The translations under genes and the position numbers were made by a program. DNA of 35,623 nt, taken from Candidatus Woesearchaeota archaeon. GTDB taxonomy: Archaea; Nanobdellota; Nanobdellia; SCGC-AAA011-G17; GW2011-AR20. Below, piece after piece: positions 2,893 to 35,517 of the stretch. The stretch lies in NCBI GenBank assembly GCA_964361505.1, contig CAYIAV010000002.1, forward strand, positions 1 to 35,623, in the 5' to 3' direction. The notes under the pieces were generated by a model. The model did no database searches, was not told the origin of the DNA, and was given only the letters and a program-made list of their open reading frames with translations. Numbering within the stretch: the first letter of the stretch is position 1; each line of letters opens with the position of its first letter.

Positions 2893-3915
2893 ATGATAGA
2901 AATTCAGGGCAATATCCATGAAGGCGGAGGCTCTATAGTCCGTTTATCTTGCGCTTTATCCGCTTTAACTCAAAAACCAGTAAAAATCACAAAAATAAGA
3001 GAAAATAGAGAGAGAAAAGGATTAATGGAGCAACATTATCAAAGTATAAAATCCTTAGCAAGATTGTGCAACGCAGAAACAAAAGGTGTTGAGTTAGGTA
3101 GCAGAGAATTAGAATTCATTCCTCATGAAATAACAAAAAAACAGTTAAATGTTGAAATAAGAACAGCAGGCAGTACTTGTTTAGTCTTGCAATCTTTAAT
3201 GCTTCCCTCTTTGTTTCTAAAACATAATATGCAAATAAGAATTGAAGGTGGTGCAACTTTCAATGAAAAAGCTCCAAATATTTTCTATTTCACAGATGTT
3301 TTATTTCCAATTTTAAGGAAGTTAGGATTTAATTTAAATTTAGATGTAATAAAGCACGGCTTCTATCCAAGGGGAGGAGCAGACTTAATTTTCAGATCTA
3401 AACCATTTACTAAACTAAACAATCTTTATTTAGATATGCCCAGTGAACTAAATAAAATAACTGGTATTTCAGTTGCAACTTCAGAATTGAAAAAAGCAAA
3501 AGTAGCAGAGCGTCAATCTTTAAGTGCTGAAAAAATTTTATCAAATAATTTTGACTGTCCTGTAAATATTAGGATAATGTACGTAAATTCACTAAGCCCT
3601 AGCTCTGGAATATTGCTAAAAGCTCATTATCCTGATTACATTTTAGCTGGAGATGCTTTAGGTGCAAAAGGAAAATACAGTGAAAAGGTTGGAGAAGAAG
3701 CTGCAACAAATTTATTAAAGCAAATAATACCAAAAGCAACAGTAGACGAACATCTTGCTGATCAATTAATTCCTTATCTAGCATTAACAGAAGAATCAAT
3801 AATAAAAGTCCCAAGAATAACAGACCATCTAAAGACAAATATTCATATAGTTGAAAAATTTATAAATTGTAAAATTAAAGTAAAGGGAAAGATAATTGAA
3901 ATAAAAAAGATTTAA
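2893..3915 (+). CDS. rtcA: RNA 3'-terminal phosphate cyclase
   Basis: EGGGSIVRLSCALSALTQKPVKITKIRENRERKGLMEQH matches the RtcA N-terminal signature. Length is 340 aa. Confidence 0.85.
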   Translation: MIEIQGNIHEGGGSIVRLSCALSALTQKPVKITKIRENRERKGLMEQHYQSIKSLARLCNAETKGVELGSRELEFIPHEITKKQLNVEIRTAGSTCLVLQSLMLPSLFLKHNMQIRIEGGATFNEKAPNIFYFTDVLFPILRKLGFNLNLDVIKHGFYPRGGADLIFRSKPFTKLNNLYLDMPSELNKITGISVATSELKKAKVAERQSLSAEKILSNNFDCPVNIRIMYVNSLSPSSGILLKAHYPDYILAGDALGAKGKYSEKVGEEAATNLLKQIIPKATVDEHLADQLIPYLALTEESIIKVPRITDHLKTNIHIVEKFINCKIKVKGKIIEIKKI

Positions 3916-4514: not shown

Positions 4515-5240
4515 ATGACACTCCAAGAAATAGCTGAAGACATTAAAGGAAAAAGAAGCTTATCAGACATTGATGATGATTTTCTAAAAGCTAGAATATT
4601 AGAAAAGATAGACAAATACAAAATAGATATTAATGAGGATTTTAAAAAATTAAAAAGAAAAGATCGTTATCAGCAGTTCTTCAAGGAAGTAAGGAAACAA
4701 TTAAGAAAAGTTTACGGAGTTTATCGCGAATTGGCAGAACCCAGGCCAAAATCAGCTTACAAAGAAATTCTTAAAAAAATCGGAAATTTTAGCTCTTTAC
4801 TAGACATAGGCTGTGGAAAATCTCCTTTAGAATACATTGAAATATTCGGAAAAGACAAAACATATTACTCATGTGATATTTCTAAAGAGTGTATAGAAGA
4901 AATTGATTCCTACAAGAAAAAAAATAAAGTCAGAGGCAAAACTTTCATGTTTAATGCATATGACAATTATAAGGAAAATTTGCCTAAAGCAGATGTAACA
5001 TTTCTATTTAGAGTTTTAGAAAGCTTGGAAACATTAAAAAAAGGTTCAAGTGAGAAATTGTTTAAAAACTTAAATTCTAAAACAATCTTAGTTAGTTTCT
5101 CAAAAATAGCATTAGGTCATAATGAAGAAATAAAGAAAAAGGGAAGGTCTTGGTTTAGAAGAATGCTAAGTAGAAACAATTACACATTTGAGGACTTTGA
5201 TATAGAAGATGAAATATTCTTCTTAATTAAAACCAAATAA
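4515..5240 (+). CDS. ArmA/Rmt (FmrO)-family 16S rRNA methyltransferase homolog
   Basis: KEVRKQLRKVYGVY resembles the family motif K-x-V-R-x-x-L-H-x-I-Y-G-A-Y. LDIGCGKSPL is the SAM loop (compare LDxxCGxNPL). ADVTFLFRVLESLE and VSFSKIALGHNEEIKKKGRSWF compare with SFPxxSLxGxxKGMxxxYxxWF. The C-terminal DEIFFLIK also fits. Confidence 0.6.
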   Translation: MTLQEIAEDIKGKRSLSDIDDDFLKARILEKIDKYKIDINEDFKKLKRKDRYQQFFKEVRKQLRKVYGVYRELAEPRPKSAYKEILKKIGNFSSLLDIGCGKSPLEYIEIFGKDKTYYSCDISKECIEEIDSYKKKNKVRGKTFMFNAYDNYKENLPKADVTFLFRVLESLETLKKGSSEKLFKNLNSKTILVSFSKIALGHNEEIKKKGRSWFRRMLSRNNYTFEDFDIEDEIFFLIKTK

Positions 5241-19995: not shown

Positions 19996-20039
19996 ATTTC
20001 TTTCAATAAATTTATAAAACAAGTAATATAAACAAAATA

Positions 20040-20171
20040 GGGGCTTACTTCCATTGCCGGTATGGGACTTCAAAAAGAAGCATAAAGCTATAGGCTAATG
20101 GTTAGGCTCACAGGTTTGGGTCTAAAAGAGCAAAAAACCTGTTGATCCAGGTTCGAATCCTGGTAGCCCCA
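20040..20171 (+). tRNA. tRNA-Pro(UGG) gene with a canonical intron and an acceptor-stem interruption
   Basis: The 3' acceptor TAGCCCC + A73 pairs with GGGGCT (20040-20045) + A20090, which are separated by 44 nt. D-arm GGCT-AATGGTTA-GGCT. After removing 20121-20136 (16 nt, 37/38), the anticodon arm is ACAGG-TTTGGGA-CCTGT, with a perfect central helix TTTG/CAAA and 3-nt bulges. T-arm CCAGG-TTCGAAT-CCTGG. Mature length is 72 nt. Confidence 0.7.
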
Positions 20172-34956: not shown

Positions 34957-35517
34957 TTACGGTCTAGTCCACTTAATTTCGTAGTAAGTACAATCTTCCT
35001 CTGCATCAACTATCCCCAATAGCAATCTCTTCCTTGTGCTATGAGCAACCCTGTTCTTAGCGCTAAACTCATGCCAGGTTAATGTGCTTCCCTCATGAAC
35101 TGGAAATAAAACCCATTTAGCATGATCTTCTCCAGGTTTAATTCCCCTATCATAAACCCTAAAATCGGCCCCAAATTTTAAAGCAGTTTTAACAATATAT
35201 CCTCTGCTCCTCATATCTCTATAAACAAGATACTTCAACCAAATATTGGGCTCAGTTTTCTTAGAACTTTTCAATAAAGCATCAAATTTCAAAGTTTTCT
35301 TGCCATCTTTGACATTCATCTTTCCCTTTTCCACTAAGTACAAAGCCTCAACTAAAGAATAAACTATCTTGCCGTCCTTAGGCTCACCATATCTGCTGGA
35401 ATCATACAATTCTCTAGCACTGCCTTTATCTTGAGCACTAACTTTCTCCATCAAAAACTCAGCTGCAAATTTCCTGACTTTTATCTTTTCTTCTTTAATA
35501 TTATCCTTATCACTCAT
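34957..35517 (-). CDS. endA: tRNA-splicing endonuclease, single-unit (alpha-type) subunit
   Basis: YRDMRSRGYIVKTALKFGADFRVYDRG, HAKWVLFPV and VAHSTRKRLLLGIV correspond to the catalytic Tyr/His/Lys region of archaeal EndA. Length is 186 aa. Confidence 0.85.
   Translation of the reverse strand: MSDKDNIKEEKIKVRKFAAEFLMEKVSAQDKGSARELYDSSRYGEPKDGKIVYSLVEALYLVEKGKMNVKDGKKTLKFDALLKSSKKTEPNIWLKYLVYRDMRSRGYIVKTALKFGADFRVYDRGIKPGEDHAKWVLFPVHEGSTLTWHEFSAKNRVAHSTRKRLLLGIVDAEEDCTYYEIKWTRP

Follow-up and report, generated by a model that had tools for sequence, protein, structure and literature searches.

A Woesearchaeota tRNA-Pro(UGG) gene with predicted introns at positions 3/4 and 37/38 and a 5' leader that probably forms part of the splice signal

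Introduction

Introns at position 3/4 are an extreme case of tRNA intron placement, known from the Thermoproteales (Sugahara 2008, via PMC4090602), and the tRNA-Pro(UGG) gene of Pyrobaculum islandicum is cited in the same review as carrying introns at 25/26, 37/38 and 56/57 (Sugahara 2007, via PMC4090602). In DPANN archaea possessing an alpha4-type EndA, the disruption of tRNA genes has been reported to be increased, in a survey that included a Woesearchaeota genome, and the DPANN tRNA sets obtained from standard predictors to be incomplete (Kaneta et al. 2018, PMC5829648).

We analysed a tRNA-Pro(UGG) locus of a Woesearchaeota genome, for which a previous reading of the letters (hereafter the sequence-only reading) had proposed that the mature 5' acceptor strand is a GGGGCT lying 44 nt upstream of the tRNA body. 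Judged from its sequence, this locus, besides which the assembly yielded no tRNA-Pro(UGG) gene, has introns at 3/4 and 37/38, both in strict BHB motifs. With a probability that we put at roughly 0.85, it is a two-intron gene with a 24-nt leader that undergoes standard EndA splicing, the GGGGCT at 20040-20045 belonging to the leader and not to the mature tRNA.

Materials and methods

The region was scanned for BHB motifs under the strict archaeal definition, in which the central helix has 4 bp and each of its strands is followed on the 3' side by a bulge of 3 nt. Orthologues were sought through the conserved 3' end of tRNA-Pro in 240 genomes of the same order, from which 62 further loci were taken, and the leader duplex was tested in the 15 orthologues that have an intron at 3/4 or 4/5. 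The whole genome was also searched with a SPLITS-like procedure combining T-arm anchors, removal of single BHB candidates and aragorn.

Results

The source genome (G000) comprises 0.84 Mb at 32% G+C and is estimated to be 94% complete; its contig C2 is the window, by which we mean the whole stretch of 35,623 nt that was analysed. Two sister species (G001 and G002), both groundwater MAGs of Candidatus Woesearchaeota, share the locus at 92-95% identity, and their differences in the tRNA-Pro body and in both splice motifs fall in loops or are compatible with pairing. Standard tools recover the gene poorly: the Rfam tRNA match (20087-20167, 38 bits) covers model positions 4-67 only, and ARAGORN wrongly called the unspliced locus Phe(aaa). 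When both introns were removed in silico, aragorn returned a 72-nt tRNA-Pro(tgg) cloverleaf with a 7-bp acceptor stem, in which the spliced 5' strand GGGGCTA pairs with TAGCCCC at all seven positions, in keeping with the identity assigned by the sequence-only reading. The parts of the gene are the following.

20064-20066, plus strand: exon 1, tRNA positions 1-3 (GGG), from in-silico splicing
20067-20086, plus strand: intron 1, 20 nt, at tRNA position 3/4, from the BHB scan, relatives and in-silico splicing
20087-20120, plus strand: exon 2, tRNA positions 4-37, with the anticodon UGG at 20117-20119, from the Rfam match and the aragorn cloverleaf of the spliced sequence
20121-20136, plus strand: intron 2, 16 nt, canonical 37/38, from direct reading and in-silico splicing
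20137-20171, plus strand: exon 3, tRNA positions 38-73, from direct reading, Rfam and in-silico splicing

The 3' acceptor strand TAGCCCC occupies 20164-20170 and is followed by the discriminator A at 20171, with no CCA encoded. As had been noted earlier, the AAAGCT directly upstream of the body is unable to pair with the CCC of this strand, and the 5' acceptor strand is indeed interrupted, in the form of the 20-nt intron at 3/4. Rfam and aragorn revealed no second tRNA-Pro(UGG) in the 94%-complete assembly. An aragorn call of tRNA-Pro(tgg) on contig C6 was rejected as not being Pro, having the acceptor stem GCCGCGA and no Rfam match. A split or permuted gene was likewise discarded, the pieces being collinear within 132 nt and downstream of one conserved TATA box, and no motif for a nested second intron, left after removal of the first, was found by reading the sequence.

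The intron at 37/38 was already delimited correctly in the sequence-only reading, as 16 nt with a TTTG/CAAA helix. Its BHB is composed of TTTG (20115-20118), the bulge GG/T (the slash marking the cut), an inner helix h' of C-G and U-A pairs, CAAA (20131-20134) and the bulge AA/A, the two bulges being those described before. In run X8, a drinking-water metagenome, one DNA contig of low depth is missing exactly these 16 bases (20121-20136), which supports the boundaries of the intron, and points to an intron-less allele or a close relative. The same contig also carries G20166A and an additional T after 20171. In DNA contigs from other groundwater samples, 20040-20090 is unchanged.

The interruption of the acceptor strand coincides with a second perfect BHB, which ranked first in the scan of the region.

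20061-20087, plus strand: first BHB motif, rank 1 in the BHB scan of the region

It consists of the helix strand Ha, TATG (20061-20064), the bulge GG/A (20065-20067), the inner hairpin h' CTTC-AAAAA-GAAG (20068-20080, with 4 bp between 20068-20071 and 20077-20080), the strand Hb, CATA (20081-20084), and the bulge AA/G (20085-20087), so that the motif places the cuts after 20066 and after 20086. Its outer helix h comprises 2 bp, a 3-nt internal loop and a further 8 bp in which the leader pairs with the D-arm region. When the upstream 147 nt were shuffled 20,000 times, no shuffle matched the quality of this BHB together with a restored 7-bp acceptor stem. The implication of the sequence-only reading that no canonical BHB accounts for the interruption is thus superseded by the motif at the top of the scan, while its two hairpins of the intervening sequence can be drawn: the second is the inner helix of the first BHB, and the 3' arm of the first corresponds to the central-helix strand plus the first bulge. 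Energy minimisation did not draw the BHB itself and favoured a UAUGG/CUAUA pairing in its place. Bulged motifs are usually missed by energy minimisation, and the evidence for this one therefore lies in its pattern and in comparison. A competing hairpin, between 20049-20054 and 20062-20067, is possible and is predicted for G002, which speaks against the two-intron model, as does the shortness of the outer helix, with no more than 2 bp adjoining the central helix ahead of the 3-nt loop. A 44-nt candidate with a GGCT/AGCT helix was rejected because its acceptor stem would be mismatched.

Most orthologues in the order have an uninterrupted GGGGYTR strand, starting mostly 24-28 nt after an 8-mer TATA box. 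In 10 genomes belonging to seven Woesearchaeales families, however, the 3/4 intron is present with the same layout, the succession of a proximal GGG, the intron and GCT being invariant and the first bulge being GGA in all of them. The central helices (TATG/CATA, CGTG/CACG, TACG/CGTA, GATG/CATC and GATG/CATT) show compensatory changes in three of their four pairs, and none is broken across the 10 genomes. The introns begin with ACT or ATT and end mostly with GCRTAAA, and on account of these shared ends they look homologous.

Three further observations were made on these loci. In one additional family (five genomes; L058, L062, L063, L065 and L066) the tRNA-Pro intron measures 31 nt and is located at 4/5 rather than 3/4, and the gene has a leader of some 24 nt complementary to the D arm. 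In L070 (G136) an upstream copy of the strand, TATGGGG, could also make up the central helix with the same CGTA strand, through one G-U pair, in which case two alternative 5' splice sites would define a 14-nt or a 36-nt intron and the same mature tRNA. Finally, tRNA-Pro genes from several families, whether or not they contain the 3/4 intron, have a conserved motif AAATWGGNTGG in the spacer that separates the TATA box from the start of the transcript (L002, L003, L045, L069, L021 and L064); it is missing in G000.

Upstream of the gene, the following elements were recognised.

20011-20018, plus strand: TATA box (TTTATAAA) preceded by an A-rich BRE-like stretch, from direct reading; promoter function predicted
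20040-20063, plus strand: predicted 5' leader, 24 nt, beginning 21 nt after the TATA box; start predicted
20040-20045, plus strand: upstream ('ghost') copy of the 5' acceptor strand, GGGGCT, from direct reading and the minimum-energy fold
20051-20060, plus strand: part of the leader complementary to the 3' exon, giving the outer helix h, from folds and covariation in orthologues

The TATA box (TTTATAAA) is kept in G001, G002 and many orthologues. Given the usual archaeal TATA spacing and the position at which intronless orthologues start, transcription probably begins at about 20040-20042. In all orthologues that have both a TATA box and an intron at 3/4 or 4/5, the distance from the box to G1 is 43-49 nt, as against mostly 24-28 nt from the box to +1 in those without a 5' intron, which suggests that a leader of about 20-25 nt exists only where the motif needs one. 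The 5' exon is only 3 nt long, hence the first BHB is built with the leader, which contributes the outer helix and, in the Ha strand, three bases out of four. In the folds, G20060 pairs with C20088, G20059 with U20089, and 20051-20058 with 20093-20101, leaving U20096 bulged; the complementarity between the latter two segments that was pointed out earlier is therefore real and corresponds to the outer helix of the splice motif. In G001, a change of G20059 to A turns the G-U pair into A-U. A duplex between the 16 nt preceding the central helix and the first 20 nt of the downstream exon was found in all 15 orthologues tested; its two strands co-vary, and for 13 of these orthologues no more than 7% of shuffled leaders are as stable. 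Of the two routes by which removal had been suggested to proceed, a precursor fold joining the upstream segment to the D arm is thus supported by folds and covariation, whereas a relaxed-specificity enzyme is not, the BHB being strict.

The machinery that such a precursor would require is encoded in the genome. Besides an RtcB gene and a full-length archaeal RNase P RNA (140 bits, contig C92), the window itself contains an endonuclease gene.

34957-35517, minus strand: EndA, 186 aa, the sole tRNA-splicing endonuclease gene of the genome (PF01974, 100 bits; PF02778, 54 bits)

EndA has an N-terminal and a catalytic domain and is the single match in the genome; from its size and single copy, it is presumably a homotetramer. 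The only rtcB gene is itself peculiar in harboring two mini-introns, 30 and 33 nt long, which are in frame and contain stops (L096:2780-2809 and L096:2663-2695, both on the minus strand, equal to about 3200-3229 and 3083-3115 of C66 in G000). The first splits PDGH/WGYGFP and the second GFDI/NCG, and the second has a perfect BHB (TGAC, AT/T, GTCA, AG/A).

Among the other tRNA genes, G000 yielded only 23 Rfam tRNA matches and 31 T-arm sites. No further clear acceptor-stem intron was found among these 31 sites, which are too few to judge how general the strand copy is, with the exception of a tRNA-Arg(UCU) (C11, about 5097-5199, plus strand). The latter has a 16-nt insert at 8/9 or 9/10 with a relaxed motif containing one C-A mismatch, an 11-nt intron at 37/38, and a leader of about 23 nt that starts with GGGC, the tRNA starting with GGGCCCG, and that is complementary to the anticodon arm on its 3' side. 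Many tRNAs of G000 have introns in the T loop, T arm or D loop (e.g., C22:9513-9595, C8:13751-13845 and C5:2-100), so that standard finders overlook a large share of the tRNAs.

Discussion

The pathway that we propose would start with transcription from about 20040, some 22 nt after the TATA box, giving a precursor with a 24-nt leader, three exons and two introns. Three leader bases and G1 would form one strand of the 4-bp central helix, while leader positions 20051-20060 would pair with tRNA positions 5-6 and 10-18 as the outer helix, a pairing that may tether the 3-nt 5' exon to the body until ligation. Following established enzymology, a single EndA would cut after 20066, 20086, 20120 and 20136, and RtcB would ligate the exons, leaving a leader-bearing spliced intermediate joined as TATGGG-GCTATAGG. 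After ligation the D arm and the true acceptor stem could form, RNase P would trim the leader between 20063 and 20064, and CCA would be added later. Since the leader is required in the splice motif, splicing appears to precede 5' trimming by RNase P. Both motifs are strict and so require no broadened EndA specificity; the non-BHB mechanism or relaxed-specificity enzyme invoked by the sequence-only reading becomes unnecessary, as the strict BHB at 3/4 suffices.

The origin of the upstream GGGGCT, which is present at 20040-20045 as that reading reported, is the point on which explanations diverge. About 0.006 copies of this hexamer would be expected by chance in 60 nt, and in the minimum-energy fold it pairs with AGCCCC (20165-20170) to give a pseudo-cloverleaf. 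A distal copy is found at the same place in 8 of the 10 orthologues with a 3/4 intron (with 6 of 7 pairs in G000) and is paired with the 3' strand in the minimum-energy fold in 7-8 of the 10. Its sequence differs among the three species of the genus, being GGGGCTT in G000, GGGTGCT in G001 and GGGCGT in G002; elsewhere it reads GAGGCTG in G056 and is absent in G177 and G119 (two families). That this copy is the mature 5' strand, with the interval to the body removed without a BHB by an alternative fold or a relaxed enzyme, is very improbable. Such a model does account for a strand that pairs 6/6 with the 3' strand, is improbable by chance, is paired with the 3' strand in the predicted fold and sits where intronless orthologues begin their tRNA; its mature product would, moreover, be identical in sequence to that of the two-intron model, for which reason mature 5' ends are unable to separate the two. 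Yet a bulge-helix motif is lacking at each of the four registers (3/4 to 6/7) in which GGGGCT would serve as the 5' strand, a result that the earlier reading had obtained and the scan repeats, and the perfect, conserved BHB dictating a cut after 20066 would be left unexplained. The distal copy is also degenerate or absent in 5 of the 10 orthologues, so it cannot be the mature 5' strand, and G000 yielded no tRNA-Pro(UGG) other than this one; on these grounds we abandon the assignment of GGGGCT to the mature tRNA.

Equally hard to accept is a decaying or unexpressed pseudogene in which an insertion has destroyed the acceptor stem. The failure of standard tools, with the aragorn call of Phe(aaa) and an Rfam match limited to model positions 4-67, is what such a gene might produce, but the tRNA body and both motifs are intact at 92-95% identity in two sister species, the same layout recurs in seven families, and the genome, at 94% completeness, yielded no second tRNA-Pro(UGG). 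Unlikely, though less so, is a two-intron gene transcribed from a closer start, e.g., from the TATA-like AATATAAA at 20025-20032, with a leader of about 9 nt; GGGGCT and the segment antisense to the D arm would then be untranscribed relics of an old 5' end. The presence of this second TATA-like element in G000 and the fast evolution of the distal copy, with three versions in three species of the genus, agree with it. However, the element is missing in G001 and G002, which retain the upstream box, and the complementarity between leader and D arm co-varies in 15 orthologues, which implies that the segment must be transcribed. The two-intron gene with the 24-nt leader thus remains our preferred reading.

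Taken alone, the two-intron model leaves the strong over-representation and the recurrence of the distal GGGGCT unexplained. Tentatively, and with the odds somewhat against it, the copy may be a functional stand-in acceptor strand in the precursor rather than a mere relic of the old 5' end. If so, it would pair the free 3' strand (20165-20170) while G1-G3 sit in the splice motif, keeping the 3' end ordered and the 3-nt exon held until ligation, and would then be displaced by the true strand and removed by RNase P. It would represent a folding aid that acts in cis and is peculiar to introns interrupting the acceptor stem, and this recurrent upstream copy is the only part of the locus that could be new biology.

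What appeared to be an exception is corrected by these results, since a strict motif explains the gap and neither a new splicing chemistry nor a relaxed enzyme is required. They extend the extreme 3/4 position from the Thermoproteales to a DPANN order, where it seems to be old and widespread in tRNA-Pro, and the locus illustrates why a genome estimated to be 94% complete gives no more than 23 tRNAs with standard finders. It also offers a testable case of a 5' leader acting as part of a splice signal, with the implication that splicing precedes 5' trimming.

In the literature consulted, with Sugahara 2008 represented through a review, no description was found of the present tRNA-Pro intron in Woesearchaeota, of an outer helix built by the leader or of an acceptor-strand copy in the leader. 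A 3/4 intron is of a kind already known, so that what was not found described is confined to the last two of these. The statistics of Kaneta et al. 2018 (PMC5829648) are, in the part of that study considered, given at the level of genomes and describe neither a tRNA-Pro 3/4 intron nor its leader. With the tRNA-Pro(UGG) of P. islandicum, as presented in the review cited above, the gene has in common the isoacceptor, the presence of several BHB introns and the fact of being missed by standard finders; the intron positions differ and the lineage is unrelated, and homology of the introns is not expected. The resemblance to the 3/4 introns of the Thermoproteales is closer: according to the review (PMC4090602), those introns also have BHB splice sites cut by the archaeal splicing endonuclease and often coexist, as here, with a canonical 37/38 intron. 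Their hosts are, however, crenarchaeal with a heterotetrameric enzyme and their motifs relaxed, whereas the present motif is strict and belongs to a DPANN archaeon whose single EndA measures 186 aa. As in the split tRNAs of Nanoarchaeum equitans (Randau 2005, via PMC4033280 and PMC4090602), sequence outside the mature tRNA, be it leader or trailer, is complementary to the partner and builds the helix in which the BHB is offered to EndA; unlike in N. equitans, as these reviews portray it, the present gene would act in cis within one transcript, and its leader would remain attached once splicing is complete and need RNase P, which is absent from N. equitans.
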